From Candidatus Levyibacteriota bacterium (lineage in GTDB: Bacteria > Patescibacteriota > Microgenomatia > Levybacterales > UBA12049), in contig OY970292.1 in NCBI GenBank assembly GCA_963716145.1, forward strand, positions 901,404-965,403: a stretch of 64,000 nt of DNA, in the 5' to 3' direction. Below the pieces are notes generated by a model, which worked only from the letters and a program-made list of their open reading frames with translations, ran no database searches and was not told the origin of the DNA. This document shows, piece after piece, positions 52 through 64,000 of the stretch. The position numbers and the translations under genes were made by a program. Within the stretch, counting starts at the first letter, position 1. Each line of letters opens with the position of its first letter.

Positions 52-333
52 TTGATGCCTCACATGATGCATCCTTTTATGGTGCCAATGCTCATCATTC
101 TTTTTGTTGCGTTCGCCGGATTTTTGTGGAAAGAACAGCCGGGAGATGAGCGGGAGCAGCTGCATAAATTTATTGCTTCCCGCTTTGCATATTTTGCGGG
201 AATCGCTACATTGATTTTGGGAATTATTATGCAAAGTTCAATTGGAAAAATTGATCCATGGATTGTGATCGCAATATGCATTGCTCTTCTTGCAAAAATA
301 GTTGGTTTAATTTACGGAAAGATGAAGTATTAG
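52..333 (+). CDS. small hydrophobic membrane protein (hypothetical)
   Basis: 93-aa ORF with three hydrophobic helices; no recognisable family. The overlapping antisense ORFs 10..234 and 60..281 are judged spurious. Confidence 0.35.
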   Translation: MMPHMMHPFMVPMLIILFVAFAGFLWKEQPGDEREQLHKFIASRFAYFAGIATLILGIIMQSSIGKIDPWIVIAICIALLAKIVGLIYGKMKY

Positions 334-994: not shown

Positions 995-2722
995 ATGTTA
1001 TTTTTAATTGGATTTGCATTTTTGGCAGGAGTAATTACGATTCTATCCCCCTGCATTCTTCCTATTCTCCCGATTGTTTTGTCAGGAAGCGTTGGGGGAG
1101 GAAAAAGAAAACCTCAAGGGATTGTGACAGGGTTTGTTCTTAGTTTCACTTTCTTTACACTATTCTTATCAGCACTAGTTAAAGCTACAGGTGTGTCTGC
1201 GGATTTTCTGCGTGGTTTTTCAATAGTAATTATTTTACTTTTTGGAATAAGCATTTTACTTCCTCAGTTTCAAGTACTGATGGAAAAAATGTTTTCCAAG
1301 CTTTCAAATAGATTTGCAGTACAGGGAGTGCATCAAGGGTTTGGCGGAGGAGTTTTGGTCGGTTTGAGTCTTGGGCTTATCTGGACGCCGTGTGTCGGAC
1401 CAATTATAGCAAGTGTCATAACGCTTGCCGCGACAAGTCAGGTGGGTTTTGCCGCATTTTTCATAACATTTGCCTATTCACTTGGTACTGCTATTCCGAT
1501 GTTCGCGATTATGTATGGAGGCCGTGGTTTGCTGCGAAAAGTTCCATGGCTTTTGCCAAATACCGAGAAAATCCAGAAAGCGTTTGGGATATTTATGATA
1601 ATAACTGCAATCGGGATATTTTTTAATGTTGACCGGAAATTCCAAACATATATTCTTGAGACATTCCCACAGTATGGTACAGGGCTTACCAAGCTTGAAG
1701 ATAACGATGCTGTTAAAAAGCAGCTGGATAAGCTATTCCAAAAAGACTCAAAGGATAGCTCGGGAAGTATTGGGAAGCCTACCTTTGATATGCAAAAAGG
1801 TCCAATTGCTCCTGAAATAATTCCGGGAGGGGTTTGGCTCAATTCAAAGCCACTAAAAATGAAAGATTTACGGGGAAAGGTGGTATTGGTTGATTTCTGG
1901 ACATACTCATGTATAAATTGTCAGAGGACTATGCCGTATCTGAAAGATTGGTACGCAAAGTATAAAGACAAAGGATTTGTGATAATTGGTGTTCATTCTC
2001 CGGAATTTGAATTTGAAAAGTCTGAAAAAAATGTAGCTCAAGCGTTGAAGGATTTTGGTCTAAAATATCCGGTTGTGCAGGACAATAATTTTGACACTTG
2101 GAAGGCATATGGCAACCGTTTTTGGCCTGCTAAGTATTTGGTGGATAAAGATGGATATGTCCGTTACACGCACTTTGGAGAGGGAGACTACGCTGAGACC
2201 GAGAAGGTGATACAAGATCTGCTTAAAGAAACGGGACAAATAGTAAACGTGGAGATAAAAAATGAAACAAGCTCCGGTGGACAAGCTGTGCTTTCTCCAG
2301 AAGGTTATCTTGGTTATCAAAGAATGCTGGATTTGATGGGATCGGGGAAGGCTGATCCGGGTGAGCAGCAGTTTGCCTTATCGGAAAATATCAACCCAAA
2401 TAAATTCTCTTTTGGGGGAACTTGGAATGTCAAAAAGGAATCATCGGTTGCGGTTGACGATGCAGTACTCGCCTACAACTTCAATGCAAGTAAAGTTTTC
2501 TTGGTTATGAACCCCGGTGCAGCCAGCGGAAAAATTAAAGTCTACTTAGATGGAAAATTGCTTGATCAAAAATTTGCCGGGAAAGATGTAAAAAACGGCT
2601 ATGTATTAATTGACAGCGATAGGCTTTATGAATTGATCGATTTAAAAGGAAATCCCGGAAACCATTTGCTTAGAATAGAATTTACATCAGGAGTTGAGGT
2701 CTTTGCTTTTACTTTTGGATAA
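995..2722 (+). CDS. CcdA/DsbD-type membrane electron-transfer domain fused to TlpA/ResA-like redoxin domain
   Basis: N-terminus has multiple TM helices with cysteine pairs (SPCILP..., TPCVGP) like the DsbD/CcdA core. The central DFWTYSCINCQ motif is a redoxin (AhpC/TSA/TlpA) CxxC motif. About 200 aa of C-terminal extension follow. Confidence 0.75.
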   Translation: MLFLIGFAFLAGVITILSPCILPILPIVLSGSVGGGKRKPQGIVTGFVLSFTFFTLFLSALVKATGVSADFLRGFSIVIILLFGISILLPQFQVLMEKMFSKLSNRFAVQGVHQGFGGGVLVGLSLGLIWTPCVGPIIASVITLAATSQVGFAAFFITFAYSLGTAIPMFAIMYGGRGLLRKVPWLLPNTEKIQKAFGIFMIITAIGIFFNVDRKFQTYILETFPQYGTGLTKLEDNDAVKKQLDKLFQKDSKDSSGSIGKPTFDMQKGPIAPEIIPGGVWLNSKPLKMKDLRGKVVLVDFWTYSCINCQRTMPYLKDWYAKYKDKGFVIIGVHSPEFEFEKSEKNVAQALKDFGLKYPVVQDNNFDTWKAYGNRFWPAKYLVDKDGYVRYTHFGEGDYAETEKVIQDLLKETGQIVNVEIKNETSSGGQAVLSPEGYLGYQRMLDLMGSGKADPGEQQFALSENINPNKFSFGGTWNVKKESSVAVDDAVLAYNFNASKVFLVMNPGAASGKIKVYLDGKLLDQKFAGKDVKNGYVLIDSDRLYELIDLKGNPGNHLLRIEFTSGVEVFAFTFG

Positions 2723-2774
2723 TAATTTTAATTTTCCTCTTGCCCTATTTTAATTTCCTGTATATACTTAATTT

Positions 2775-3898
2775 ATGGTACGTGTCGCGATAAATGGTTA
2801 TGGAAGAATAGGCAGAGTTGCCCACCGTGTAATCCTACAATGGCATTCTGAGGAGATAGAAGTCGTTGCAATCAATGCAGGCCACTCAACAGACATAAAG
2901 GGCTGGATGTATCTTCTTAAATACGATAGTGTGTATGGCTTGCTACCACAAGATATTAGCGTAAAACCTAACCCAGATGCAGCAGACAAAACTTTACTTG
3001 GACATTTGGTTATATCAGGAAAAGAAATCCCCGTTTATTCGCAAAAAGATCCGAATCTTCTACCATGGAAAGGCCTGAATGTAGATGTTGTTATCGAGTC
3101 TACGGGTCACTTTACATCAGCAGAGCAACTACAATCCCATATCACAGCAGGTGCCAAGGCAGTAGTTCTTTCAGCTCCTGCTAAAGGAGAGGGTGTGCCG
3201 ACATATGTTATCTCTGTAAACGAGACAAATTTCAAGGGAGAGAAAATGATCAACAATGCTTCATGTACCACCAATTGTATAACTCCTGTTGCCAAAATAA
3301 TTGATGCTGCCTTTGGAATTGATAAAGCAATGATGACAACAATTCACGGATACACATCAGACCAGAAGCTTCAGGACGGAGGACACAAAGATTATAGGAG
3401 AGCACGGGCTGCCGGGTTGAACATTGTTCCCACATCAACAGGCGCGACAATTGCGGCTGGTGAGGTGCTGCCGCAATTAAAAGGTGTGTTTGCAGGTTTG
3501 TCAGTACGGGTTCCGGTTCAGTCGGATCACTTTCTGACTTTACATTTTTACTTAAAAAAGAAGTAACGGTTGAGGAAGTAATTGGGGTTTTGGTTAAAGA
3601 AGCAGACAATCCCGTATATAAGGGAATTCTTGCTGTGACCACAGATCCAATTGTTTCATCGGACATTATCGGCAATTCCCACTCAAGCATAGTTGATCTT
3701 TCACTCACGCAAGTGGTTGGAGGTAATATGCTCAAAGTCATCGCCTGGTATGACAATGAATACGGATACGCGAATAGGTTGGTTGAGGAGACGATTATGG
3801 TTGGGCAGCCATCTGCAGCATCTGTTCCACCGACACCAGCTCCAACTGAGTCTACACCAGTTGATCCAAACGCTGCATCACAAGGATCAAGTAGTTGA
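2775..3898 (+). CDS. gap: glyceraldehyde-3-phosphate dehydrogenase, reading frame interrupted by an apparent 1-nt indel near 3505-3516
   Basis: N-terminus VRVAINGYGRIGR (NAD-binding) and the catalytic SCTTNC motif are present. Frame 0 ends at 3566 with an aberrant tail (QSDHFLTLHFYLKKK). The conserved continuation (SLSDFTFLLKKEVTVEEV...WYDNEYGYANR) is in frame 2 from about 3512 and runs to 3898. A low-complexity S/T/P C-terminal tail follows. Confidence 0.8.
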
Positions 3899-3999
3899 TT
3901 TTCCATTTGCTATTTTCCATCTGCCATTGATTGCTTATTTATAAATTGACTAATTGATAAATAAATGGGAAATGATAAATGGACATTGGAAAATAAATT

Positions 4000-4590
4000 A
4001 TGAATGAACCCATTGAGCTTCAAAATATTCGCAATATAACTGTTTCCGGCAGGATCGGTTCAGGAGCAACAACGCTTGCAAAAAGACTTTCTAAAACACT
4101 GGGGTGGGATGTGTTGGACGGGGGGAAATTATTCAGAAAAATAAACGCGGATCTTGGGATATCAATTACAGCAAGTAATAGTCGCCCTGATCATTTTGAC
4201 CTTGAATATGAAGAGAAGGTTAAAAAAACGCTAAAAGAAGAGACGCATCACATCATCCAAAGCCATTTGGCTGGTTTTGACGCTCAGGAAATCACCGGAG
4301 TTTTTAAGATTTTGGTGGTATGTGAAAATAATCAGGGACAGGACAAAACAGAAATAAGGATTGACCGGCTTGTAAATAGGGACGGAAAGGCTGTTGATGA
4401 AGCAAAAAAGGAAGTACTTGAAAGAGAAGCAGAGCATCTCAAAAAATTTCGCAGACTCTATGCAAATCATGATCAAAATTGGGTGTATTGGGATCACAAG
4501 TATTACAATTTAATTGTAAATACTTTTTCCCACAATGAAGAGGAGAGTCTGAAAATTGCACTAGAGGCAATCGGGTATAAGAATTTTTAA
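4000..4590 (+). CDS. P-loop NTP kinase, cytidylate-kinase-like (archaeal-type CMP kinase family)
   Basis: N-terminal ITVSGRIGSGATTLAKRLS Walker-A motif and an overall length of about 190 aa resemble the cytidylate kinase 2 / AAA_17 family. Confidence 0.5.
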   Translation: MNEPIELQNIRNITVSGRIGSGATTLAKRLSKTLGWDVLDGGKLFRKINADLGISITASNSRPDHFDLEYEEKVKKTLKEETHHIIQSHLAGFDAQEITGVFKILVVCENNQGQDKTEIRIDRLVNRDGKAVDEAKKEVLEREAEHLKKFRRLYANHDQNWVYWDHKYYNLIVNTFSHNEEESLKIALEAIGYKNF

Positions 4591-4610: not shown

Positions 4611-5192
4611 ATGAAATCACAATTTTCAATTTTAAAACATTTAAATATTAAAAATTCATTTCAAATTATTTTAGCAATAGTTTTGTTGGTATTTGGGTTT
4701 GTAGGAAGTGTTAGCGCTCAGGAAGATCTTCCTTCAGCAACTGAGTCATCGAAAGTGGATTATCAACTGTCATATCCGGGGCTTTTGCCTGATCATCCGC
4801 TTTATTTTCTGAAAGCGGCACGGGAGAGAGTGGAAGCTTTTTTTACTTCAAAACCTCTTAATAAGGCTGAATTTAATTTGCTCCAGGCAGATAAAAGAGT
4901 TCAGGCAAGTCAAATGCTTGCTGTAAAAGGAAAATTTGAATTATCTCAATCTACTTTTTCAAAAGCGGAAAACTATTTTGAAGAAGCAATTAACAATACC
5001 TTGCAAGCAAAGACTCAGGGGATTCATATTGATGAGGTTGCCAAGAAGCTTAAAGATGCCAACATAAAACACAAAGAAGTTCTTGGTAATATAGTTGATG
5101 CTTTAGATAAGAAGAATAAAAAACAATTTGTAACGGAAGCTAAGCGATTAACTGATTTTGAAAAAAAAGTGAGAGAGTTGAATCCGAATTAA
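4611..5192 (+). CDS. secreted hypothetical protein (signal peptide, helical)
   Basis: Hydrophobic signal-like segment ILAIVLLVFGFVGSVSA. The annotated N-terminus is encoded by an A/T heptamer-repeat region, so the true start may be internal. Confidence 0.4.
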   Translation: MKSQFSILKHLNIKNSFQIILAIVLLVFGFVGSVSAQEDLPSATESSKVDYQLSYPGLLPDHPLYFLKAARERVEAFFTSKPLNKAEFNLLQADKRVQASQMLAVKGKFELSQSTFSKAENYFEEAINNTLQAKTQGIHIDEVAKKLKDANIKHKEVLGNIVDALDKKNKKQFVTEAKRLTDFEKKVRELNPN

Positions 5193-5312
5193 TGGTCGTT
5201 TCGGATCATTATGTAAAACTTTTTTGAACACCATAAAGGCTCTTGTAAGAAAACGATATTAAAAAATTACTCATCCAAGGCTATTGATCTCCTTTGATAC
5301 TAAAGTTTATAG

Positions 5313-5365
5313 TTGACACCCAAGATCTAGTGGCATATGATTTTTGTGACACTAGATAACTAGAC
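5313..5365 (+). promoter_or_regulatory. sigma70-like promoter (TTGACA-17-TATGAT) overlapped by two tandem NrdR-box-like palindromes (5317..5332 CACccaagatctaGTG; 5350..5365 CACtagataactaGAC)
   Basis: Two CAC-N10-GTG/GAC 16-bp palindromes lie 33 bp apart start-to-start, overlapping the -35 and the region just downstream of the -10. This is the classic tandem NrdR box arrangement, about 100 bp upstream of nrdR-nrdJ. Confidence 0.55.
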
Positions 5366-5449
5366 AAGTCAGAGCTTAAAGTCTATAATTAAGAAGCAAG
5401 AATTCTTGATTTTGAAGCTAAAATGATAGTTTGATTCTAGATAAATATT

Positions 5450-5908
5450 ATGCATTGTCCATACTGCGGTACAAAAAATTCAGAAGTTGTTGAGACACGG
5501 GAGAGCTCAGATCTTGATTCTATAAGAAGGAGAAGATCATGCATGGACTGCTCCAAGAGATTCACAACTTATGAGAGAGTTGAAAATGTTGCTCTGGTTG
5601 TAATTAAAAGAGATGGAAAAAGAGAGCAATTTAGCCGTGAGAAGCTGGAGCGAGGGCTTCTTAAAGCTTGCGAGAAGACAACTATACCAACCGAGATAAT
5701 TGAAAAGATAGTATCAGAAATAACCCGAGAGCTCCGGGCGCAGGACAGTTTGGAAGTGGAGAGTACAATGATAGGAGATCTGGTTGCCAAGAAGCTTAAA
5801 AAGCTTGATAAAGTCGCTTATATCAGATTTGCCAGTGTATTTAAAAGATTTGTTGATATTGAAGATTTTGAAAAAGAAGTAAAAGGGTTAACGCCCAAAA
5901 GCCTATGA
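5450..5908 (+). CDS. nrdR: transcriptional repressor NrdR
   Basis: MHCPYCGTKNSEVVETRES...RRRRSCMDCSKRFTTYERVE is a zinc ribbon, followed by an ATP-cone domain. It overlaps the nrdJ start by 4 nt. Confidence 0.9.
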   Translation: MHCPYCGTKNSEVVETRESSDLDSIRRRRSCMDCSKRFTTYERVENVALVVIKRDGKREQFSREKLERGLLKACEKTTIPTEIIEKIVSEITRELRAQDSLEVESTMIGDLVAKKLKKLDKVAYIRFASVFKRFVDIEDFEKEVKGLTPKSL

Positions 5909-8309
5909 CACTTGATGGAATAAGACACAAAGTATTTATGGATCGCTACTCTTTGAAAGATGAGGAGGGAGTGGCTACTGAGCAAACACCGGACGCGATG
6001 TGGGCACGGGTCGCACGGGGAATTGCCGAAGCTGAGAAAAAGCCGGATCGTAAAAAATGGGAGAAGGAATTCTACCGCGTGATGGATGAATTCAAATTCG
6101 TTCCCGCGGGACGAATTCTATCGGTGCCGGTACCGGCTATCAGGTTACTTACTTTAACTGTTTTGTTATTCCCTCTCCCAAAGATTCAAGACATGGAATC
6201 CTTGAAGCGCTTGGACAGCTGGTCGAGATTCAGGCCCGTTCAGGTGGAGTTGGCTTAAACATGTCTAGTCTTCGTCCCAAAGGCGCACGGGTTAAAAAAG
6301 TAAATGGAACTTCCTCAGGCCCTGTTAACTGGGCAACTCTTTTTTCAGTCGCAACGCATGACATTGTCCAGCAGGGCGGATCAAGACGCGGAGCAACGAT
6401 GTTGATGCTTTGGGACTGGCATCCTGATATTGAAGAATTCATCACCGTTAAAGAGGATCTTACCAAAATAAACGGTGCCAATTTATCAGTCTGTGTGTCC
6501 GATGCATTCATGGAAGCTGTAAAGCTTGATAAAGATTGGGATCTTGTTTATCCTGATCTGACAGATCCAAAATACGACACGAAATGGAACGGGGAAATTG
6601 ATTTATGGAGAAAAATCGGTGGAAAAGTAATAGTTCATAAGACAATCAAAGCGCGTTATCTCTGGGATCTTATCTGCACCGCTGCCTGGAAATCAGCTGA
6701 ACCGGGCCTACACTTTCTTGAAAGAAGCAACAAAAGGTCAAACACATGGTACTTTGAAAGACTTGTTGCTACCAATCCATGCGGTGAGCAGCCTCTTGGA
6801 GCATGGGCAGTCTGCAACTTGGGCGCAATGAATCTGGCAGCGTATGTAAAAAACGGAGAATTTGATTTTGATAATTTCGGAAAAGACACCAAAGTTGCCA
6901 TGAGGCTTCTGGACAATGTCATAGACCTGACATATTATTTCTTCAAAGAAAACGAGAAATGCTCAAAAGATATTCGCAGGACCGGTCTTGGCATCATGGG
7001 ACTTGGGGACGCGCTTATCAAAATGAAACTCCGCTATGGATCTGAGGAATCATTTCCGATTATAGAAAAAATATTTAAGACATTAAGAGATAGTGCGTAT
7101 GATGCGTCTTCTGATCTCGCAAAAGAAAAAGGTTCTTTCCCATTGTTTGATAAGAAAAAATACCTAAAAGGTTACCACATCAAAGCTTTGCCAAAAAAAC
7201 TTCAGGACAAAATAGCAAAACAGGGAATTCGCAACGCAGTTCTTCTGACAATTGCGCCAACAGGTACAACGGGATTAGTTGCGGGTGTCACATCGGGAAT
7301 CGAGCCGGTCTATGAGTTTATGTTTAAGCGTAAATGGAGGGGTGGGGAGGAGACAATGTATCACCCATTATTTGACGAATGGAGACTTGCCAATCCTGAT
7401 GCAGAGAGGCCTTCCTATTTTGCCAGCGCCAATGACCTGACTCCTCTTGAGCACGCAAAAGTCCAGGCAATTGCACAGGCTTATATCGATTCCTCAATCT
7501 CCAAAACAGTTAACGCGCCAAATTCCCACACAATTGAGGATGTTAAAAATCTTTACATGGCAGCATATGATCTGGGGCTTAAAGGTGTTACTTATATGAG
7601 GGATGGATCAAGACAAGGTGTTTTGGAAAGGATTGTTGAGAAGCCAGTTGAAAAACCAATTGAGGCAGCGCCTGTTATTCCTGTGACACCCCGTATGCCG
7701 CGCCCAATGATGCTGACTGGACTTACTTACAAGACCGACAGTCCATCGGGTAAAGTTTACGTTACTCTAAATCACGACGAGAAAGACAACTTGTTTGAAG
7801 TCTTCATAAATCATGGAAAAAGCGGATCTGATCTTATGGCTCTTGCCGATGCGCTTGGAAGGATGATTTCATTTGTTCTCAGGATTCACAGTCCTGTCCC
7901 AACCCGTGAAAGAGTCCGTGAGATTATCTCAGAGTTAACAGGTATTGGAGGATCACGAAGTGTCGGATTTGGGGAAAACAGAGTCCGTTCACTTCCTGAT
8001 GCAATTGCCAAAGTACTGGCGCGCCATTATGAATTCCGGGTAAATGGAAAGGTTGAGGATAGAAAGCCGGCAAACGGCAATGGGTTGAGCAACGGTCACG
8101 CAATTGACGCGGAGCCAAAAGCTCCTGCTCAGGATTTAACGGACGCGACCCAGCTTCCAATTCCCCAAGCTGAAGAAGTGGTCTTTTCGGCAAATACTTC
8201 CTCATCTTCAACATCACTTTTTGATATTTGTCCTGAGTGCGGATCAAGTAGTCTTGCATATGAAGATGGTTGCCAGAAATGCTACGCATGTGGATACTCC
8301 GCGTGCTAG
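5905..8309 (+). CDS. nrdJ: adenosylcobalamin-dependent (class II) ribonucleotide reductase NrdJ, frame interrupted by an apparent 1-nt indel near 6116-6128
   Basis: ORF 5905..6258 (N-terminus, FVPAGRILS) and ORF 6261..8309 are contiguous in the conserved sequence. The frame-0 read-through from about 6121 gives IGAGTGYQVTYFNCFVIPSPKDSRHGILEALGQLVEIQARSGGVGLNMSSLRPKG, which is conserved class II RNR sequence. The active-site NPCGEQPL motif and a C-terminal CxxC...CxxC zinc ribbon are present. Confidence 0.85.
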
Positions 8310-12021: not shown

Positions 12022-12363
12022 ATGCAGCAAAATTATAAAGATACCCTTTTAGAACTCCTGACAACCATTAACTACCCCAATAATAAAGAAAAATTTATTG
12101 CAGAATTTGAAGACTTAAATAGGGTTGAGGTAATTGCCAATATTTTGGAAAAACTACCCAAGGATATACAAGAAAAAATACAAGCCGGTGATAATGATTA
12201 TGAGAACATTAAAAAATATATTCACCAGGATGAGTATTTAGCTGAAATAACCAAAGTTTCAGCAGAAGCACTGAAAAAATTTATTGAAGTAATTTCACCA
12301 CTTCTCACCTTACAGCAGAAACAACAAGTAGATAAGATAGTACATAATTACCCAAGATTGTAA
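12022..12363 (+). CDS. hypothetical protein
   Basis: 113-aa acidic/helical ORF, co-directional and tightly spaced with its neighbours. Confidence 0.35.
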   Translation: MQQNYKDTLLELLTTINYPNNKEKFIAEFEDLNRVEVIANILEKLPKDIQEKIQAGDNDYENIKKYIHQDEYLAEITKVSAEALKKFIEVISPLLTLQQKQQVDKIVHNYPRL

Positions 12364-12418
12364 TCTTTTGTTAGGATTTTTTATTGCCTCTTGAGCCCCC
12401 ACATGCTAAGATTATTTT

Positions 12419-13090
12419 ATGGATAGTAGTGCCCCAAATTCACAGCAGAATACAGATTCATCAGCTGTTCAACCAGCTCAGCCAATTGTTCCAAATCGTG
12501 GAGGAATACCGATTGGTCCTACTCAACCAGCTTCGTCTGAGCTTCAGATAGTAGATCCAATCTTACCGGTTGCGGAATCTGCTGCACAAAAAGATGTGCA
12601 AAGTATAAGTCAGAATGATTCCATTTCCCTTATGCCATCTCAATCCCCAGCAACTCCTTCCGAAAAGCCGGCAAATGACCAAAATGTTGTAACTCAAGCA
12701 CCAGTTTCTCAGCAGGTAAGTTCTACAAAAAACCGCGAACATGAACCCTCATCAGCGCCAGCACCTGATATTGTAAAAATGACTGATTCTGAAATAATTC
12801 AGGAAGAAAAAGTAGTTGAAAAGGAAATTGAAGCAATGGTTGAGAAAACCCCGGATTCGGAAAAACCAAAACTTTCATCAGAGGTAAAGGCCGCGGGGGT
12901 AGAACATGCAAAAGAAGATACACCGATGCCTCCTCTTCCGACAGGCGTCAAACCATTGCCTATGAGTTATGATGAAGCGCAATCAATACGGAAAAAATAC
13001 AAATTAATACTGAAAGATTCAGTTGCCTGGCTATCAACTTTGATAATGTATCACTGGAAAAAAATTGGATTTAAAAATAAAGAGACATAA
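12419..13090 (+). CDS. hypothetical protein with P/Q/S-rich low-complexity N-terminal region
   Basis: 223-aa ORF with no recognisable motif. It ends 3 nt before the start of the large ATPase gene. Confidence 0.35.
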   Translation: MDSSAPNSQQNTDSSAVQPAQPIVPNRGGIPIGPTQPASSELQIVDPILPVAESAAQKDVQSISQNDSISLMPSQSPATPSEKPANDQNVVTQAPVSQQVSSTKNREHEPSSAPAPDIVKMTDSEIIQEEKVVEKEIEAMVEKTPDSEKPKLSSEVKAAGVEHAKEDTPMPPLPTGVKPLPMSYDEAQSIRKKYKLILKDSVAWLSTLIMYHWKKIGFKNKET

Positions 13091-13093
13091 AGT

Positions 13094-15484
13094 ATGCAAG
13101 TACAATCTTTTTTAAGCCAAAATTCACTTATAATAAAGCTTTTTTTTGGTGTTTTGGGATTTGCCGCGGTAGCAGGATTTCTTATGTTGCTCTTTTATGT
13201 TTTTCTGATGTGGATAAGGCACCGCAAAAGGGAATCAGAAGCACTTAATTCAACTCTTCTTCAAGTGACAGTACCAAGGGATAATGAGATCAAAGTTGAT
13301 GCTGCTGAGCAGATGTTTTCAGCATTATATGCAATACGCAAAACCTATGAAAAGGACAGACTGTCTTTTTTCAAATCCCAGCCGCATCTTTCATTTGAAA
13401 TTGTAGGATTGCCTGGGGATATCCGTTTTTACGTCAATGTTCCAAACAATCTGCGGGATTTTGTTGAAAAACAAATTAACGGTTCATATCCTGATGCCGA
13501 AATAATTCCTGTTACTGAGCCTGCAGCTAAGCAAAGAGAGGGTGGAGTTCTGGGTACAGAATACAATATTTTTTCAAAAGATGGAAAGGTAGCTTTTGTG
13601 TCCCTTAGGCTGCACCACGCAAATCACATGCCGATAAAAGTATACAAGGATTTGGCTGTTGATTCTTTATCTTCAATCACCTCAGTCCTTGCCAAAATGG
13701 GAGAAGGCGAGGGGGCAGCTCTTCAGATTGTGATAAGTCCGGCCTCATCCAAATGGAAAAAAGAAGGTCGCAGTTTTATTGGGCACACAAAAAAGATGGA
13801 AGCAAATCCTGAGAAAGCAAGTTATAAGTCCGACGCTAAAGAGCTTGAGGCAATAGAGAGTAAAATCCAAAAACCGGGATTTGATACTGTTATCCGGATT
13901 GTGGTCTCAGCCAAAACATATCATGCTGCAAAAGCCCACAAAGATAATATAAAAGGAGCATTCAGTCAGTTTACTCTCCATAATTCCTTTCACAGGAACA
14001 AAAATTGGATTAAGGGGTGGTTCATGAATGATTTTATTTACCGTTATTTTCCAATGTGGGGACAGACTTCTGTCCTGACGAGTGAAGAATTGGCAACTAT
14101 TTATCATTTTCCAAATAAAAGTGTGTATACAACTCCCGGAATTCACTGGTTGACTGCCAAGCGAGCGCCGGCACCCTCAAATTTGCCGACAAGTGGTCTT
14201 TATCTGGGAAAGAGCAGTTATCGAGGCATATCCCGCGGAATATTTCAAGGACGCGAAGACCGTCGTCGCCACACCTATATAATCGGAAAAACAGGAACAG
14301 GAAAAACAGAAATGCTCAAAACCATGATCATGCAGGATATAAATAACGGTGAAGGACTTGCGGTTATTGATCCTCACGGAGATTTGGTTGAGGATATTCT
14401 GCGTATGATACCCCCTAAAAGGGCTGAGGAGGTTATTCTCTTTGATCCATCAGATACTGAGCGCCCGATGGGTTTTAATATGCTCTCAGCAGACACCGAG
14501 CAGCAAAAGCATTTCGTTGTAAACTCAATAATCGGTCTTATGTATAAGCTTTTCGATCCGAATAAAACCGGTATCATTGGTCCTCGTTTTGAACATGCTA
14601 TTCGTAACGCGATGCTTACAGTGATGTATGAGAAAGGGAGTACCTTTATTGAAGTTGTGCGTGTTTTGACTGACCAGGCGTTTGTTCAGGAGTTATTGCC
14701 CAAAGTTCAGGATCCGATAATCAGACGTTACTGGACAGATCAGATTGCACAAACCAGTGATTTCCACAAATCCGAGGTTTTGGATTATATTACCTCCAAA
14801 TTCGGGCGTTTTGTTACCAATAAAATGATCAGAAATATTATTGGTCAGTCTGATAGCTCTTTTGAATTCCGTAAAGTCATGGATGAGGGTAAAATTCTTC
14901 TCATCAATCTTTCCAAAGGAAAAATTGGTGAGGAAAACGCTAACTTTTTAGGATTGGTTTTGGTTCCAAAAATTTTGGTTGCTGCTATGAGCAGGCAGGA
15001 TATTCCCAATCAGGAAGACAGACGGGACTTTTTTCTCTATGTTGATGAGTTTCAGAATTTCGCAACACCGGACTTCGCCCAAATTCTCTCAGAAGCACGT
15101 AAATACCGTCTCAATTTGATTGTTGCCAATCAGTTTATCGGTCAGATGGAGGAGGAGATCAAAAATGCTATTTTTGGAAACGTAGGAACAATAGCGTCGT
15201 TTAGAGTCGGTGTAACTGATGCAAATTATCTCCAGCATGAATTCCAACCGCTATTTAATGAAAACGATCTTATCAATGTCGATAAGTATAATGCATATAT
15301 GCGGACTATTGTTAATGGTGAACCTGCTGCGCCTTTTTCGCTTGATACCACCAAAGATGTTTCCAAGGAGAAAGCCCTCCAAAACGACCGTGTTGCTGAG
15401 TTGGTTCGCGAACTCTCCCGTCTTAAGTATGGAAAGAGTGTTGAAACAGTTGAAACAGAAATTGCTACTAGAGCGAGATTATAA
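13094..15484 (+). CDS. VirB4/VirD4/HerA-FtsK superfamily P-loop ATPase with N-terminal TM segment (type IV secretion/conjugation-like)
   Basis: N-terminal TM helix. Walker A GKTGTGKT sits mid-protein, followed by a VIDPHGDL motif and a Walker B-like FFLYVDEFQNF. Length 796 aa. Confidence 0.6.
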   Translation: MQVQSFLSQNSLIIKLFFGVLGFAAVAGFLMLLFYVFLMWIRHRKRESEALNSTLLQVTVPRDNEIKVDAAEQMFSALYAIRKTYEKDRLSFFKSQPHLSFEIVGLPGDIRFYVNVPNNLRDFVEKQINGSYPDAEIIPVTEPAAKQREGGVLGTEYNIFSKDGKVAFVSLRLHHANHMPIKVYKDLAVDSLSSITSVLAKMGEGEGAALQIVISPASSKWKKEGRSFIGHTKKMEANPEKASYKSDAKELEAIESKIQKPGFDTVIRIVVSAKTYHAAKAHKDNIKGAFSQFTLHNSFHRNKNWIKGWFMNDFIYRYFPMWGQTSVLTSEELATIYHFPNKSVYTTPGIHWLTAKRAPAPSNLPTSGLYLGKSSYRGISRGIFQGREDRRRHTYIIGKTGTGKTEMLKTMIMQDINNGEGLAVIDPHGDLVEDILRMIPPKRAEEVILFDPSDTERPMGFNMLSADTEQQKHFVVNSIIGLMYKLFDPNKTGIIGPRFEHAIRNAMLTVMYEKGSTFIEVVRVLTDQAFVQELLPKVQDPIIRRYWTDQIAQTSDFHKSEVLDYITSKFGRFVTNKMIRNIIGQSDSSFEFRKVMDEGKILLINLSKGKIGEENANFLGLVLVPKILVAAMSRQDIPNQEDRRDFFLYVDEFQNFATPDFAQILSEARKYRLNLIVANQFIGQMEEEIKNAIFGNVGTIASFRVGVTDANYLQHEFQPLFNENDLINVDKYNAYMRTIVNGEPAAPFSLDTTKDVSKEKALQNDRVAELVRELSRLKYGKSVETVETEIATRARL

Positions 15485-58075: not shown

Positions 58076-58648
58076 TCAGCGGGACATTCTCAAAATCTCT
58101 TGCGAGACATCTGGTAGTGAAGTAACACTTAGTGCTTCATTTATTGGACCTGAAAAATGTCCCATTTTGTTTTTGACAATAAGTTTTGCGCCTAGTTTAT
58201 CTTTCAAGATATCCCCAAATTGTAATGGTACGTTTGGATCGTTATCCGAGTGGATAGCAACAAAGTACTTTGATTTATTTTTTATTTTCTCAAAATCAAT
58301 TGGTTTATCAAAGAAATTTTCCAATTCTTCATATCCTTCTCCAAGGCTTTCCGTAAAACCTGCCACCAATACAACTCCGCCGATCTTTGTATTTTCATCT
58401 GATTGTTCCAAATATTTTAAAATCGCTATACATCCAGCACTGTGTCCAATTAGGAATAAATCTTCATTGGGTCTATCAGCTACTTGTTGAAGTTCACTAA
58501 GCCAAAGAGAAATTTCGGGGAAATGGGTATTTGGCATTTCAGGAACTATAACTTTAAATCCTTTATCTTCAAGTTCTTTTTTGGTTTGGGGATACCAGCA
58601 GTATTTAGGAGAGCCACCCCAGCAATGTACTATGATCACTCTTTTCAC
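58076..58648 (-). CDS. alpha/beta serine hydrolase (YdeN/RBBP9-like)
   Basis: GHSAGC nucleophile elbow; about 190 aa. Confidence 0.6.
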   Translation of the reverse strand: MKRVIIVHCWGGSPKYCWYPQTKKELEDKGFKVIVPEMPNTHFPEISLWLSELQQVADRPNEDLFLIGHSAGCIAILKYLEQSDENTKIGGVVLVAGFTESLGEGYEELENFFDKPIDFEKIKNKSKYFVAIHSDNDPNVPLQFGDILKDKLGAKLIVKNKMGHFSGPINEALSVTSLPDVSQEILRMSR

Positions 58649-58650
58649 TT

Positions 58651-59133
58651 TTACTTCAATTTTATTTCTACACTGTCTCCTTTTTTGATATCGTATTTTT
58701 TTGAAAGTCCGGAATTAATTTCCAACACTTTATTTACCGGTCCCGCTGGTTTTATAATCGGAGGATTTGTATCGCCAGTTGCGGGTGGTTTGGCGTTCTC
58801 TCCAACAGATATAACCTTGTCATCTTTAAGGAAAATAATATCAATAGGGAATTTCATATTCTTCATCCAGAAGTTGTAGTAATCAGGTTTATCAAAAATA
58901 AAAAGCATTCCTTCATCTTCTGCAAGTTTTTCCCGTCCGGATAATCCCGCCTGCTGTTCTTTCGGAGTTTGAGCCAGTTCTACTTTAAATGTGTGATTAT
59001 TAATTTTAACAGTAGTTGAGGAATTTTTGAGTGATGATTTTTCCGCAGGTTTTGAGTTAAATTGGAAAAAAACAACTCCCGCGAAAATAACCAAAATAAT
59101 TCCAAAAATTACGATAAGTTTATTCATACTCAT
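58651..59133 (-). CDS. DUF192 domain protein (COG1430)
   Basis: Signal/TM N-terminus; LFIFD...NFWMKNMKFPIDIIFL pattern. Confidence 0.6.
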   Translation of the reverse strand: MSMNKLIVIFGIILVIFAGVVFFQFNSKPAEKSSLKNSSTTVKINNHTFKVELAQTPKEQQAGLSGREKLAEDEGMLFIFDKPDYYNFWMKNMKFPIDIIFLKDDKVISVGENAKPPATGDTNPPIIKPAGPVNKVLEINSGLSKKYDIKKGDSVEIKLK

Positions 59134-59611
59134 ATTTCTTTTAATATATTAACTAATCTGCTTGTCGATTGATTACTTACTTCCTCAGTAACTTCAACAA
59201 CTTTTGCTCCGATTAGGCCAGCCTGGCGGTCTTTATGAATTTTACTGGAATCTCCTTTTGTAGTTGCGATTATAGCAGGTTTTAGCAAAATTACCAGTCC
59301 GTCGTAGTCTTTGTCGTTTTTAAGGGTAGGTAGGGGAATAATGTAGTCTACCATAGACAGGTTTGCAAGGATTTTTGCCCGGTCAGGCTGAGTATTTATC
59401 GGGCGGTGGGGCCTTTAATTTTTTTGATATTTTCGTCTGATTCCAAAAATACAAAAAGCACATCGCCATGCTTTTTGGCATTGGCAAGATACTCAATATG
59501 CCCGATGTGAAGAATATCAAAGCAACCTCCGGCAAGTGCAATGGTTTTACCCTCGTTCCTTATTTTTTCACTTAATTTAATTGCTTGCTCAGTTGAAATA
59601 ATTTTATTCAT
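59130..59611 (-). CDS. RfaE-domain-II/TagD-like cytidylyl/adenylyl-transferase, apparent frameshift in a G/C run near 59399-59413
   Basis: N-terminal HxGH motif (GGCFDILHIGHIEYL) is in ORF 59396..59698. The conserved continuation RPINTQPDRAKILANLSMVDYIIPL... is in another frame and joins ORF 59130..59354. Start set at the internal Met. Confidence 0.6.
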
Positions 59612-59615
59612 AAAT

Positions 59616-60443
59616 TTATAAAGTTGTGATTGGCCTACTTTGGACAATGTAAAATTTGTTTTTTTCAAATGCCCATTCAATGTCGCAGGGAAATCCATAG
59701 TGATTTTCTATTTTAATTCCCAGCTCTGATAGTTCTTTTATTTGTTTTTCGTCCAAAGTAAATTTTCGTTTTAAATCAGAGGAAACGGGGAGTTCTTCAT
59801 TTTCCCCATCTTTGTATACATACATTTTTTCTTTACTGCCAAGGTCTTTACCTTTAATTTCAAGATTATTTTTATCAACCAGATAGTTATCCGGTGTAAT
59901 AATTCCCTGGACAATATATTCTCCCAATCCATATCCTGCTTCAATCATAAGCTCACTTAGAGCACCTGTTACCGGATTGACAGTGAACATGACTCCCGAA
60001 ATTTCACTGTCGACCATTTTTTGAACAACAACAGCGACAGCAAGTTGATCTTTTTTTACATTTTTATCTTTGGCGTATGATTTGGCGCGGGATGTTTCAA
60101 TTGATTCAAAACATAGTTTTATGTTTTCCAGTAAATTTTCTTTTGTGATATTTAAATAACTTTCCAGTTGTCCGGCCCAAGAAGCATTTGATGAATCTTC
60201 GGCAACTGCTGATGAACGGACAGCAACCCTTTCGGTTTTTAAATCATCAAATGCGGCAAAAAGTTCCTGTTTAAATTCTTCGGAAAATGGTTGGTTACTA
60301 AATTCTTTAAACCCAGTTGTGGTTACTACAAATCCAGGTGGAACGGGAAGCCCTGCGCTAGTCATTTCGCCAAGTGATGCACCTTTTCCGCCGGCAATTT
60401 TGGTATCATGTTTGGAAATTTCCTCAAAAAATTTAATATACAT
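59616..60443 (-). CDS. stand-alone PEP synthase/PPDK N-terminal ATP-grasp (nucleotide-binding) domain protein
   Basis: IAGGKGASLGEMTSAGLPVPPGFVVTT is the hallmark of the PPDK_N domain. About 275 aa, with no swivel or TIM-barrel domain. Confidence 0.75.
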   Translation of the reverse strand: MYIKFFEEISKHDTKIAGGKGASLGEMTSAGLPVPPGFVVTTTGFKEFSNQPFSEEFKQELFAAFDDLKTERVAVRSSAVAEDSSNASWAGQLESYLNITKENLLENIKLCFESIETSRAKSYAKDKNVKKDQLAVAVVVQKMVDSEISGVMFTVNPVTGALSELMIEAGYGLGEYIVQGIITPDNYLVDKNNLEIKGKDLGSKEKMYVYKDGENEELPVSSDLKRKFTLDEKQIKELSELGIKIENHYGFPCDIEWAFEKNKFYIVQSRPITTL

Positions 60444-61879
60444 TAGCTCAATTTCTTTACAGTACCTTTATCAGCATCTACTTCAACTAAATCTCCGTCT
60501 TTCAAAATTTTTGTCGCGATTTTGGTGCCGACAATGCATGGAATACCGTACTCTCTTGATACAATTGCCGCATGTGAGGTAATTCCTCCTTCGTTTGTAA
60601 CTATTGCAGCGGAAATCCGCATAGCTGATACATAATCGGGGTGTGTTGTAACGGCCACCAATATATTCCCCTTTTTAACTTTTTTTAAATCTTTAATTCC
60701 TTTAACTATCGCGACAGTTCCACTGGCTTTACCTTTTGATGCTGTCCTACCCCTGATTTCCTGTAAAACTTCCTCTTGTGGCAGTAAATTAAAAGCCTTT
60801 AGAGCTGTTTGGATATTATCTCCCTCCAAACACACCAATTCATTATTTTTGTCCAAATACAGCACAAAACCTTTTTTTCGTTGTTGGATAATAGGTTTAG
60901 AAATAGTTTTTTTGCCAGATAAAAAATCATCCATCTCAGATTCTTGTAAAAAACTCAAGTCAACTATTGAAATATTCATTCTTTTTGCAATTTCTTTATA
61001 TAAAGCGCCAGCGTAATATACACTTTCACGTCTGAAATCATCCCGTGCATCTTTAATATAAACAAATCTTTTTGCCATTTTCAGATATTCTAAATCGCTT
61101 GAAGATGGTTTTAGTCCTGTGATTAATCTCTCAAATGATAGACCCCCCCCAATAGATTTTTTTGTAAATGATTTTATGTGTTTTTTGAATTCATTTTTTG
61201 TCCAAGGTTTGTTTTGAATATCTAGGCAAGAAAGCCATTTGAACTGTTCATACAAATTGTCAAATTCTTCAACGGTTAAATTGCCTTTGTGTTTTTCGAC
61301 TATATTCTGAAGTTTTAGAACCGCAGCCAATTTTTCAGGTTTAAATAGTGAGTCAATAAATTGCTGTCTATTACTTTCCTTCTTATGTTTCTTAATATAA
61401 TTATCCAAAATTTCAGTTCCGTGGTCTGCGACAAAATTGTTTAAAATAAATGCTGACCACACAAATACTGAATAACGATTTCTAAAATCTTGATATTTAG
61501 CGAAGACAGAAAGCAGCTCTAGGTTTGTTACTTTCTCATAATCTAGTTTTGAAATTTCTTTGGCACAACTCAAATAATTATTTCCATCAATTAAAAATTG
61601 TTTTTCATATTTTGTTAATTGTTCTGCGTCTACTGCATATTTTTTATTCAATCCTTCAACAAGCGCATTCCAGGAAGCGCTATCAATAAAGAAAGAAGAA
61701 TTATCTCCTTCTCCAGGAATGACAACTTGAGATGCAGAAGTAACGGGAAAATGATAGCCGGCAAATTCTAAAATTGCAATGGCAAAGCCATAATACTGTA
61801 TGCTATATTCACGATCCAAGATTTTTATCCATGATATTTTGCCTAAGTCTTTTTTGAAAATAGGATCAGGTATATTCAT
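60443..61879 (-). CDS. protein with novel N-terminal domain fused to PEP-utilizing-enzyme mobile (phospho-His swivel) domain
   Basis: C-terminal GTVAIV...GNILVAVTTHPDYV...TNEGGITSHAAIVSREYGIPCIVG is the PEP-utilizers motif. The first about 350 aa have no recognisable family. The stop overlaps the start of the ATP-grasp gene. Confidence 0.7.
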   Translation of the reverse strand: MNIPDPIFKKDLGKISWIKILDREYSIQYYGFAIAILEFAGYHFPVTSASQVVIPGEGDNSSFFIDSASWNALVEGLNKKYAVDAEQLTKYEKQFLIDGNNYLSCAKEISKLDYEKVTNLELLSVFAKYQDFRNRYSVFVWSAFILNNFVADHGTEILDNYIKKHKKESNRQQFIDSLFKPEKLAAVLKLQNIVEKHKGNLTVEEFDNLYEQFKWLSCLDIQNKPWTKNEFKKHIKSFTKKSIGGGLSFERLITGLKPSSSDLEYLKMAKRFVYIKDARDDFRRESVYYAGALYKEIAKRMNISIVDLSFLQESEMDDFLSGKKTISKPIIQQRKKGFVLYLDKNNELVCLEGDNIQTALKAFNLLPQEEVLQEIRGRTASKGKASGTVAIVKGIKDLKKVKKGNILVAVTTHPDYVSAMRISAAIVTNEGGITSHAAIVSREYGIPCIVGTKIATKILKDGDLVEVDADKGTVKKLS

Positions 61880-62452
61880 TTAGCTAAAAATAGGTTCTGG
61901 GGGCAAGTTCAACTCTTTTCTTACAGTTTTTATTCTTTTTACATATTCTTTGAAAATTTCTGCTGGTTTATGGATTCTATAGAATCCTTCTGCATTTTTA
62001 TAAAATGAGCAGTCGAAAACATCAACATCCTTAACAAGTTCAACGTATGGATTACCGGAATGGACTTCTTTTTCACTATGGTGAGCGACAGCATCCGTTA
62101 TTGTTTTTATATCGTTATCAGAAAATCCTCCAACTTCTCGTAAAATCTTTTCAGCAATGGGAGTACCCATTTTTGCATGGTCTTTATATTTTCCTTCTAC
62201 AACTACATAAATATCGTGTAACACCGAAGCAACGGTCGCTATATCAGTATCAAGATTTCTTTTTTGAGCTAAGATTTTGGCGATCTGACAACAATCAGAG
62301 GAATGTTTCAACTCAAATACCACTGAACTTTCTCTTTCAGCATCTGATAAAGGGGAATTCAACAGCATCTCTACTACTTTCCTTTCCACCTTCTCAGCAG
62401 GAGAAAGGTCATCTCCTTTATAATGATGGTAGTCTTTTAGTTGTGATTGCAT
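61880..62452 (-). CDS. HD-domain phosphohydrolase
   Basis: H...HD motif (VLHDIY) plus downstream His/Asp ligands; 190 aa. Confidence 0.65.
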   Translation of the reverse strand: MQSQLKDYHHYKGDDLSPAEKVERKVVEMLLNSPLSDAERESSVVFELKHSSDCCQIAKILAQKRNLDTDIATVASVLHDIYVVVEGKYKDHAKMGTPIAEKILREVGGFSDNDIKTITDAVAHHSEKEVHSGNPYVELVKDVDVFDCSFYKNAEGFYRIHKPAEIFKEYVKRIKTVRKELNLPPEPIFS

Positions 62453-62497
62453 AATTTTAGACTGAGCGTTTGTAGTATATCAGATGACGATTGGAAG

Positions 62498-63844
62498 TTA
62501 AATATTAAGAAGCTGCCACTCTCCCGATGTGCTATTTAGTTCGATTTTGGCTCCATTTTTTATCGACGCTGCATTGTTATCAATAATCGCGGGAATTCCA
62601 AATTCGCGCGCGACAATTGCTCCATGCGATGTTTGTCCGCCCTTTAAAAATATAAGCCCTTCGCATTTTGGATATTGAGGGGCAAATTCGGGACTGGCAT
62701 TTGGAAAAATACCAACAGTTCCTTTTGGAATATTTAGATCATTGTTAATAACGTGCAGAGCAGTTCCGGTAACTTTTCCCTGTGAAACCAGCATACCCTT
62801 GCCCGAGTTTGGGTTTAAAGTGTTTGTCAATTTTTTTGTACGTACCTCAGTTTTTTTATTTTTAAAACTCTTTGAAATATTTTTTTTGATAAGTTCTTTT
62901 CTGGTAATACTACTTATTCCTGAAACACTTTTTGTTTTTTGCAAAATTTTATTTCTCAACAGATCAATAAATAAAAGGGTTTTTTGTTTGGCAAGAGATC
63001 TAACTAGCTGTAGCTGAATTGAAGTATCAATTAAATGACTATTTTTTTTATCTATATCAATTGATATATTTTGCGGAATTATATTTTCAAATGATTCAAT
63101 TCTATTTTTGATAACATCCGGAATTTCGTGCCAGCGCGGAGCAGTGAGTTCATAATCCTTATCAGCTCTAAGTCCATATAGCTCGAGATATTTAGAAAAA
63201 GATATTTCGTTCCGTTTTACTTTTTGCTGATCCGCAAATGAACTAAAAAACCAGTCCTTCTGCCCAACCCTAGCGCTTATAAAGGTATTGATTATAGCAG
63301 CATTTTCGCCTGATTCTTTTATGACAAGCTGACTATAAAATTCAGAAACTAAGCCAACTGCAATAACGACCGGCCAGATTTTATCTCCCAATAAATTATC
63401 AATATTTTCAATATCCATATCCTCTGTTTTGGCAGGGATAGTTTCAGTTAGCTTTTTTGCAAGATCAACTATTTCCTGTGGTTGGGAAATCCATTTTGAT
63501 TGAACAAAGATAGTCTTTGAAGTATTTAATATGCATGTGGGATTTATTATTTTTTTTAAATCAATGGTAAGTTGGGGGGATTGATGAATATCTTTTTGCA
63601 ATTTATAGTGGAATACTGTTTTTTTGTACAGCGTTTGTTCCTCTATTTTAAGATTAACTAATAGCTCTCCGTTAATAAACTCAAGAATTGGAGTTTGGTT
63701 CTCTTCGAAAGGTAAGCCTAAAAGTTTCATTGCTTTACCAACACTGCCTTTTCCTGTAAACCAGCTTTTGAGGAAAGAATAAGTAAGCGGAGTCGGGTTA
63801 TTTACCAATTCCGCAAACCCCCCTGAATAATAATTGTGGTCCAT
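62498..63844 (-). CDS. paralogous protein: novel N-terminal domain + PEP-utilizer phospho-His swivel domain
   Basis: C-terminal GIFPNASPEFA...LKGGQTSHGAIVAREFGIPAIID. The about 330-aa N-terminal region is unrelated to known PEP synthase domains. Confidence 0.7.
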   Translation of the reverse strand: MDHNYYSGGFAELVNNPTPLTYSFLKSWFTGKGSVGKAMKLLGLPFEENQTPILEFINGELLVNLKIEEQTLYKKTVFHYKLQKDIHQSPQLTIDLKKIINPTCILNTSKTIFVQSKWISQPQEIVDLAKKLTETIPAKTEDMDIENIDNLLGDKIWPVVIAVGLVSEFYSQLVIKESGENAAIINTFISARVGQKDWFFSSFADQQKVKRNEISFSKYLELYGLRADKDYELTAPRWHEIPDVIKNRIESFENIIPQNISIDIDKKNSHLIDTSIQLQLVRSLAKQKTLLFIDLLRNKILQKTKSVSGISSITRKELIKKNISKSFKNKKTEVRTKKLTNTLNPNSGKGMLVSQGKVTGTALHVINNDLNIPKGTVGIFPNASPEFAPQYPKCEGLIFLKGGQTSHGAIVAREFGIPAIIDNNAASIKNGAKIELNSTSGEWQLLNI

Positions 63845-63884: not shown

Positions 63885-64000
63885 ATGAAATTAGTCTTAG
63901 CGTTATTAATAGGTGCATTTTTATTTGCATTTGCTCCGTCAAAAGCTCATGCGATAATATTTCTTCCGGCAACTATTTTAATACCAATTGCCAAGATAGT
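63885..64000 (+). CDS. partial ORF (signal peptide MKLVLALLIGAFLFAFAPSKAHA...), truncated by window end
   Basis: Met start followed by a classic signal peptide. The ORF is incomplete. Confidence 0.3.
   Translation, partial: MKLVLALLIGAFLFAFAPSKAHAIIFLPATILIPIAKI

Follow-up and report, generated by a model that had tools for sequence, protein, structure and literature searches.

An HD-domain phosphohydrolase gene linked to a probable two-component RPH-type dikinase in a Candidatus Levyibacteriota genome

We analysed a 64,000-nucleotide stretch of contig OY970292.1 from Candidatus Levyibacteriota bacterium (assembly GCA_963716145.1; hereafter the window) and describe here a gene cluster on its minus strand at positions 58076–63844. 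Three adjacent genes encode an HD-domain phosphohydrolase (HD), a protein composed of an acceptor domain and a phospho-His swivel domain (b), and a stand-alone ATP-grasp subunit (d); a further gene directly upstream of HD encodes a second acceptor-swivel protein (a). We consider it probable that HD-b-d is the core operon, that b and d together form a two-component dikinase of the type represented by rifampin phosphotransferase (RPH) and HpeHI, that a is a second acceptor subunit charged by d, and that HD acts in the same pathway. Throughout, G, M and S denote ATP-grasp, acceptor and phospho-His swivel domains respectively; b has the composition M-S and d is G alone.

The cluster contains eight closely spaced open reading frame (ORF) segments, two of which are parts of one broken gene. 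Genes a (62498–63844; 448 amino acids) and b (60443–61879; 478 amino acids) both match Pfam PEP-utilizers, at residues 372–441 (E = 7.5e-15) and 402–472 (E = 1.2e-25) respectively. The HD gene (61880–62452) encodes a metal-dependent phosphohydrolase of 190 amino acids that matches Pfam HD at E = 1.4e-7, over the curated cut-off, and d (59616–60443; 275 amino acids) matches PPDK_N at E = 2.8e-86. The stop codon of HD abuts the ATG of b, and the stop codon of b shares one base with the start codon of d as TAATG, which is the overlap reported in the initial annotation; its seven ORFs and their domain assignments likewise agree with the coordinates and with the Pfam and NCBIfam matches. There is no swivel or ATP-grasp gene in the 64-kb window beyond a, b and d, and PADLOC gave no credible match to a defence system. 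Promoter and terminator scanning performed at chance level and is uninformative as to the limits of the operon.

Protein b consists of a helical part resembling the rifampin-binding domain of RPH (approximately residues 1–365) followed by the swivel (approximately residues 370–478), in which the phospho-His motif GGITSH436 is present; the His436 codon is at 60572–60574. An AlphaFold2 model calculated with 44 homologues has a predicted local distance difference test score (pLDDT) of 90.5 and a predicted template modelling score (pTM) of 0.84, and contains the helical part plus the swivel. When this model was compared to the PDB with Foldseek, the top six matches were all RPH-Lm (E approximately 1e-13), with which b shares 16% sequence identity. 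The modelled N-terminal domain is thus RPH-like and helical rather than the TIM barrel that would have pointed to an ordinary phosphoenolpyruvate (PEP) synthase. The initial annotation had called the N-terminal domains of a and b novel, and this does not hold, as the model, the Foldseek matches and the family profile described below identify both as homologues of the RPH rifampin-binding domain; the RPH-like domain set that it proposed, split between an acceptor-swivel protein and a separate ATP-grasp, is well founded.

Over 100 full-length homologues, about 478 amino acids long and 50–80% identical, make up the b family. Invariant polar or charged residues in b are R23, E24, H43, D66, Q191, D220, N223, D277, R279, D280, D281, R283 and R284, and residues 276–284 form the invariant motif KDARDDFRR. 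The acceptor-domain family comprises 341 clusters at 50% identity among 1.8 billion representatives, and of its best 149 representatives 110 are M-S proteins, 10–13 are G-M-S single chains, and one has the composition M-S-NUDIX. This last protein (P0385, encoded at 4692–6575 of locus L056) is a b-type acceptor and swivel with a NUDIX hydrolase domain fused at its C-terminus, so that the b-type acceptor family has NUDIX as well as HD among its phosphohydrolase partners.

The partner subunit d aligns with RPH-Lm (5fbs) from residue 4 to residue 316, the exact end of the ATP-grasp domain. Residues K20, R76 and S95 of d correspond to K22, R117 and T136 of RPH, which touch the ATP phosphates (PMC4844700). 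The domain is shortened in d, which is without about 40 residues matching RPH 73–113. The ATP-grasp proteins at two related loci, L047 (8443–9180) and L057 (10329–11072), are 245–247 amino acids long and have about 20 residues fewer again, around window positions 204–223; the 312-amino acid stand-alone ATP-grasps of other members of the candidate phyla radiation (CPR) are full length.

The association of these genes recurs well beyond the window. We compared 14 other loci. In 12 of them, all distinct, the b-type gene is split (L001, L003, L005, L045, L046, L047, L048, L049, L051, L053, L054 and L057), and two have HD beside a fused dikinase gene (L055 and L007). An HD gene of a single clade, encoding 188–194 amino acids, lies directly upstream of b in all 12 split loci, and the stop and start codons usually overlap or abut. 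In L055, HD is directly upstream of a canonical single-chain G-M-S relative (P0364), and in L007, which is otherwise syntenic with the window, it precedes a fused gene of composition G-M'-S' that replaces b and d and encodes 747 amino acids. The N-terminal ATP-grasp of the fused protein is 70% identical to d. BLASTP of b against this protein aligned the last 147 residues only, and it took a profile comparison to reveal distant homology between the acceptor domains; we therefore rejected a plain circular permutation of the L007 gene as the origin of the window arrangement.

An ATP-grasp gene encoding 245–275 amino acids is directly downstream of b in six loci (L045, L046, L047, L048, L051 and L057). 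The TAATG overlap of b and d was read directly in L045, L046, L047 and L057, where the ORFs are full length and 60–80% identical in amino acid sequence. The order a-HD-b-d recurs in L057. The flanks of L047 and L057 (metK, acylphosphatase, recA) bear no relation to the window flanks (VanW ... TsaD, RmuC), and we therefore interpret HD-b-d as a unit held through rearrangements. Of the seven-gene block in the initial annotation it is this core that recurs, as HD-b, HD-b-d or a-HD-b-d; the remaining three genes (e, f and g) are not kept with it. The HD-b pair is conserved at 53–80% / 58–75% identity over Microgenomates lineages in varied genome contexts. The window is from a Microgenomates-type CPR bacterium, and the homologues carry the names Levyibacteria, Gottesmanbacteria, Roizmanbacteria and Daviesbacteria. 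Retention of an HD-dikinase pair over an entire CPR superphylum, in genomes of about 1 Mb, argues for a core metabolic role. A metagenome scan with the N-terminal domain of b returned 7 loci, too few for statistics.

Two further features of these loci should be mentioned. In L051 (416–1628) and L052 (4001–5213) the b gene is split or damaged, giving segments of 288 and 142 amino acids with about 60 residues gone, and HD and the ATP-grasp gene are intact. In L047 (5255–10023) an S-adenosylmethionine (SAM) synthetase gene lies upstream of HD-b-d and a gene similar to (R)-SAM hydrolase lies downstream, with MetK also upstream in L057; this hints, within a single lineage, at a link of HD-b-d to adenosine or SAM metabolism.

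The HD protein belongs to a clade of 425 proteins from Microgenomates-like genomes, the best 120 matches being 63–93% identical to the window protein. Its metal-ligand pattern is H...HD...H...H...D, and all of the ligands and many basic residues are invariant. The model (pLDDT 94.3) has an all-helical HD fold with the PF01966 motif H...HD...D. Structural neighbours are 2pq7, BH1327/YqeK, YpgQ and YedJ, which are small hydrolases, either uncharacterised or nucleotide-directed, and the nearest characterised structures are the nucleotide pyrophosphohydrolases YqeK and YpgQ; by sequence the best match among solved structures is YedJ, at E = 0.0016 only. These proteins resemble the window HD in size (about 190 amino acids), fold and metal-ligand pattern, but the window clade is confined to Microgenomates-like genomes and is always paired with a b-type dikinase.

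The HD protein also has an N-terminal tail of about 15 residues, including DFHHYKG, that is predicted to be disordered (pLDDT 53 for residues 1–10). Among 38 homologues H10, K12 and G13 are invariant, and D7, H9 and Y11 are conserved in at least 90%. The near-invariant tail (residues 1–19; window 62395–62452) could be a docking or an acceptor peptide. A disordered yet nearly invariant segment, in a protein whose gene is strictly adjacent to b with stop and start codons usually overlapping or abutting, could be accounted for by a protein phosphorelay in which the swivel His of b, homologous to the swivel of enzyme I of the phosphotransferase system (PTS), phosphorylates D7-H9-H10-Y11-K12-G13 as enzyme I does HPr, thereby switching the hydrolase. 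We think this very improbable, however, since the acceptor domain has the small-molecule-binding fold of RPH and every characterised relative of the same fold acts on small molecules (PMC4844700, PMC12167813); moreover, a docking peptide or an active-site lid is as plausible a role for the tail as a phosphoacceptor.

Gene a encodes a different acceptor domain. The phospho-His motif GGQTSH407 is present (His407 codon at 62624–62626), and YGLRADKDYELTAPRWHEIP is a motif common to a and the RPH rifampin-binding domain. Proteins of the a type are about 450 amino acids long and many carry the Pfam domain PF27448 (Rph_4th). Comparison of the a family profile with RPH-Lm matched its rifampin-binding domain and swivel over two stretches (E = 2.6e-24), and within this match is the motif YG-R-x-x-(E/D)-x-(D/E)-L-T-x-(P/T)-R-W-x-E. 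The description of a and b as paralogous swivel proteins is correct for the swivels, which are 31% identical over 97 amino acids, but BLASTP detects no similarity between the N-terminal parts. As the acceptor domains differ, the substrate of a is presumably different from that of b.

The a gene belongs to a second module together with two membrane proteins. One is a transmembrane-anchored protein of about 360 amino acids, conserved beside the a-type gene in L007, L008, L009 and L057 (phmmer E approximately 1e-100), for which there is no credible Pfam match. The other is a 97-amino acid membrane protein encoded divergently from a in L007, L008 and L057; the start of this gene is present in the window on the plus strand (63885–64000), where it is cut by the window end, and its translation, MKLVLALLIGAFLFAFAPSKAHAIIFLPATILIPIAKI, matches the 97-amino acid proteins at the same place in L007 and L008. 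The companion genes of the module lie at 5609–6960 in L007, 5592–6985 in L008, 5582–6987 in L057 and 5414–6505 in L009. Because these membrane proteins accompany a, we suggest that the module is connected with the membrane or envelope. HD directly follows this module in the window, L007 and L057, and the module is absent from L045 and L046. Elsewhere a-type proteins have ATP-grasps of their own: in L008 a stand-alone gene encoding 285 amino acids overlaps the stop codon of the a-type gene, and in P0167, P0178 and P0196 (696–714 amino acids) the ATP-grasp is C-terminal in an M-S-G single chain. In both the window and L057, the d-type gene is the sole ATP-grasp gene seen beside the two acceptor genes. 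With no adjoining ATP-grasp of its own here, a therefore probably shares d and is charged by it in this genome.

By homology with RPH and HpeHI, the reaction would proceed as follows. The ATP-grasp subunit d would bind ATP, and His436 on the mobile swivel of b would attack the beta-phosphate; AMP would leave and the gamma-phosphate would be released as inorganic phosphate (Pi). The swivel His of a would probably be charged likewise. The b swivel would then swing back to its own helical, RPH-like acceptor domain and phosphorylate a hydroxyl of the bound small molecule, for a net reaction of ATP + X-OH + H2O -> AMP + Pi + X-O-P. The most likely target of HD would be a phosphate or pyrophosphate ester, either of the compound that b makes or of the precursor of that compound; HD may also reverse the phosphorylation, as put forward in the initial annotation. 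The invariant polar residues of b, together with the HD and NUDIX partners, suggest that the substrate of b is polar and possibly nucleotide-like rather than a hydrophobic antibiotic.

An antibiotic substrate nonetheless deserves consideration, as the acceptor domain has the RPH fold and b and d could be a split functional equivalent of RPH, a resistance kinase directed against rifamycin-like or other antibiotics from neighbours or hosts. A resistome survey counted rph-like genes in CPR genomes, most of them in Microgenomates (PMC8651080), and the RPH family is a wide small-molecule dikinase family of which some members are antibiotic-directed (PMC12167813). Several observations make this explanation quite unlikely. 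The NCBIfam model for RPH (NF041857) scores 71 bits on b, 53 on a and 221 on d, all far below its cut-off of 999, and the identity of b to RPH-Lm is low. RPH holds rifampin chiefly by hydrophobic contacts (PMC4844700), whereas the invariant residues of b are polar or charged. The conservation of the HD-b pair across Microgenomates looks housekeeping rather than accessory, and a phosphohydrolase partner makes little sense in drug inactivation.

Several points weigh against our interpretation of HD-b-d as a small-molecule dikinase with two acceptors. First, in L001, L003, L005 and L049 there is no ATP-grasp gene within the 3.6–8 kb viewed on each side, and b in these genomes either has a distant ATP-grasp partner or works without one. 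Second, the sharing of d by a is drawn only from their adjacency here and in L057 and from the a-type fusions elsewhere. Third, the role of HD is constrained only to a phosphohydrolase fold with intact metal ligands. Fourth, the invariant R279-D280-x-x-R283 of b lies about 25 residues ahead of the stretch that aligns with RPH 700–866, and to regard R279, D280 and R283 as counterparts of RPH R666, E667 and K670 is our inference and not a result of alignment; the profile-to-PDB alignments, which end before that helix, did not place these RPH residues on a or b. Finally, d and the swivel of b are nearest to the archaeal PEP synthase 8a8e (226 bits, and E = 8e-26 over 108 residues) and not to RPH.

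This last similarity, and the retention of a T-S-H motif of the PEP synthase type, would also fit a split PEP synthase, in which d and the b swivel serve a TIM-barrel protein encoded elsewhere and the N-terminal domain of b is regulatory. We found no PEP-utilizers_C TIM barrel among the cluster proteins using Pfam and NCBIfam, in agreement with the initial conclusion that this is not PEP synthase, and neither the window nor any of the related loci contains a TIM-barrel gene. The single-chain G-M-S relatives of b stop at the swivel without PEP-utilizers_C, b itself begins with an RPH-type acceptor domain that includes an invariant charged motif, and TIGR01418 (PEP synthase) scores are 118 and 280 bits, below its cut-off of 740. 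In PEP synthase and pyruvate phosphate dikinase (PPDK), whose ATP-grasp and swivel are the domains nearest in sequence to d and to the b swivel, the swivel is central and accompanied by the TIM barrel, whereas in b it is C-terminal to the acceptor domain. On the Pfam matches, the b model with its fold matches, and the G-M-S relatives, we rejected a split PEP synthase as highly improbable.

The small-molecule dikinase that we favour has close architectural precedents. HpeHI, CreHI and PpsAB are two-component RPH-like small-molecule dikinases, and in HpeHI the ATP-grasp and acceptor-swivel proteins are separate, both are needed, and the conserved His is essential; HpeH by itself catalyses phosphotransfer between substrates, and HpeH, CreH and PpsA are about 45% identical pairwise (PMC12167813). 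HpeH, CreH and PpsA correspond to b and a, and HpeI, CreI and PpsB to d, and the chemistry is expected to be alike, with a phospho-His intermediate and the overall reaction ATP + X-OH + H2O -> AMP + Pi + X-P. The NCBIfam models PRK08296.1-5, which we take to represent the PpsA-like group, score 102 bits on b against a cut-off of 578 and match residues 372–477 (the swivel) only. Judged by the NCBIfam models, the acceptor domains in the window have no detectable sequence relation to these proteins, and the window system is assigned to a separate clade of the same architecture. It differs also in its CPR host, in having an HD hydrolase rather than a carboxylase as its invariant partner, and in the presence of two different acceptor subunits beside one ATP-grasp gene. 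None of the loci that we inspected showed genes for aromatic catabolism.

Comparison with single-chain dikinases is also informative. RPH (PDB 5HV1/5FBS) is a G-M-S single chain, whereas the window system is split, with the gene order M-S then G, has polar conserved residues in b, and includes an HD partner. In glucan water dikinase the order is acceptor, His domain and ATP domain (PMC13553574), as in the b-d gene pair and in the a-type M-S-G fusions, but this enzyme is a single plant or algal protein of 1400 amino acids with CBM45 starch-binding modules.

Since the HpeHI, CreHI and PpsAB architecture with the same subunit split is already published (PMC12167813), to call the window system undescribed, as the initial annotation did, is too strong. 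What is new here is the HD linkage, the recurrence of HD-b-d, the placing of a in a second module with two membrane proteins, the presence of two acceptors beside one ATP-grasp, and the CPR and DPANN arrays described below; within a limited library we found no literature on the HD linkage, the dual-acceptor arrangement or these arrays. Such genes are currently annotated as "PEP-utilizing enzyme" only, or mislabelled as PEP synthase or rph, and the only characterised members of this enzyme class are those of antibiotic resistance and aromatic catabolism. The system is amenable to experiment thanks to its strict linkage to HD, to the freedom with which its domains are permuted (G-M-S, M-S + G and M-S-G) and to the multi-acceptor arrays, and knowledge of the substrate could supply a missing piece of metabolic reconstructions for CPR and correct resistome counts that score such genes as rifampin resistance.

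The proposition that several acceptor modules can be served by one ATP-grasp is strengthened by Rosetta-stone fusions and by CPR and DPANN loci with up to seven acceptors. In species-representative genomes, four groups can be distinguished among the close relatives of d: genuine PEP synthases, enzymes with one G-M-S chain, giant G-M-S-M-S chains, and stand-alone ATP-grasp loci. The giant chains reach 1462 amino acids (L027, 1662–6050) and were also found at L033 (1–3501), L039 (5989–9729) and L043 (3–3002). In 15 CPR or DPANN loci a stand-alone ATP-grasp gene is located beside 1–7 different acceptor-swivel genes, with two each in L011, L013, L015, L016 and L020, four in L028 and seven in L021, where six of the seven are full length and Pfam-confirmed. 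Arrays with one stand-alone ATP-grasp and 2–7 acceptor genes span 1–9604 in L021, 1–6939 in L028, 2139–6939 in L011 and 4525–8229 in L017, and the N-terminal parts of their acceptor proteins vary in both length and sequence. The first acceptor-swivel protein of the L011 array (2139–4019) has an N-terminal winged-helix (ArsR/MarR-like) match, a hint of a DNA-binding or sensor variant.

A broader proposal is that one ATP-grasp in CPR and DPANN charges interchangeable, metabolite-specific acceptors in a hub-and-spoke manner, that the HD-coupled b-type protein forms a housekeeping pair for a nucleotide-like metabolite and replaces a missing canonical enzyme, and that a rarer variant is a PTS-like relay to the HHYKG tail of HD. 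We put this forward tentatively and regard it as doubtful in this full form; if true, it would constitute a modular salvage or activation kinase platform for small-genome organisms.

Downstream of d in the window are three further genes on the same strand. Gene e (59130–59611) encodes a cytidylyl- or adenylyltransferase-like protein related to RfaE domain II, with a Pfam CTP_transf_like match in the first of two frames. The frameshift noted initially is borne out by this sequence, in which ACCCGCCCG at 59396–59407 is one C short; the flanking genes are intact, and with the C restored the product is 160 amino acids long and 67% identical to intact orthologues in L007 and L045. The deletion could mean that e is a genuine pseudogene, or it could be a sequencing error in a homopolymer. 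Gene f (58651–59133) encodes a DUF192 protein (Pfam E = 3e-32) with an N-terminal hydrophobic segment, and g (58076–58648) a YdeN-like serine hydrolase (Pfam Ser_hydrolase, E = 6e-22). An e-type gene follows the dikinase only in L045, L046 and L007, which form the synteny group of the window, and f follows the nucleotidyltransferase only in the same group; both are absent beside the block in L047 and L057. In L045 a distance of 4 kb, including RmuC and an acyltransferase gene, separates the g orthologue from the cluster, and there is none beside the cluster in L046 or L007. Because loci with different flanks hold the core without these genes, their inclusion in the system by the initial annotation is unsupported and we regard them as neighbours rather than demonstrable parts: e is probably a synteny neighbour outside the system, f is a synteny neighbour, and g lies outside it.

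The position of e nevertheless suggests a pathway in which b and d make X-P, the RfaE-II/TagD-like enzyme converts it to a nucleoside diphosphate derivative (NDP-X), and HD or NUDIX hydrolyses or recycles NDP-X. The e-type gene is directly after d in the window, L045 and L046, and directly after the fused dikinase gene in L007. HD and NUDIX superfamilies typically act on nucleotide-linked compounds, both kinds of partner occur with b-type proteins (P0385 being the M-S-NUDIX example), and the relatives of the HD model include YqeK and YpgQ. However, the adjacency may be inherited and not selected, as the four loci are all members of a single synteny group (VanW ... TsaD-RmuC), and in L047 and L057 HD-b-d is present without an adjoining nucleotidyltransferase. 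The gene is frameshifted in the window, where a, HD, b and d are all intact, and the specificity of the enzyme is undefined, with a rfaE_dom_II (TIGR02199) score of 116.7 bits on the intact L007 orthologue, below the cut-off of 181.5. We regard this pathway as unlikely.

The 1-nucleotide deletion in e, the fused G-M'-S' gene at the equivalent place in L007 and the broken b genes in L051 and L052 might alternatively indicate a decaying locus, in which b, d and the broken nucleotidyltransferase are what remains of a fused gene cluster that is degenerating, or artefacts of assembly. We find this scarcely credible, as the b/d split, the TAATG overlap and the full-length ORFs are kept at 60–80% identity in L045, L046, L047 and L057 and the catalytic residues of b and d are intact. 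Elsewhere in L047, the RecA gene (12092–14515; 807 amino acids) contains an intein bearing a LAGLIDADG endonuclease domain.

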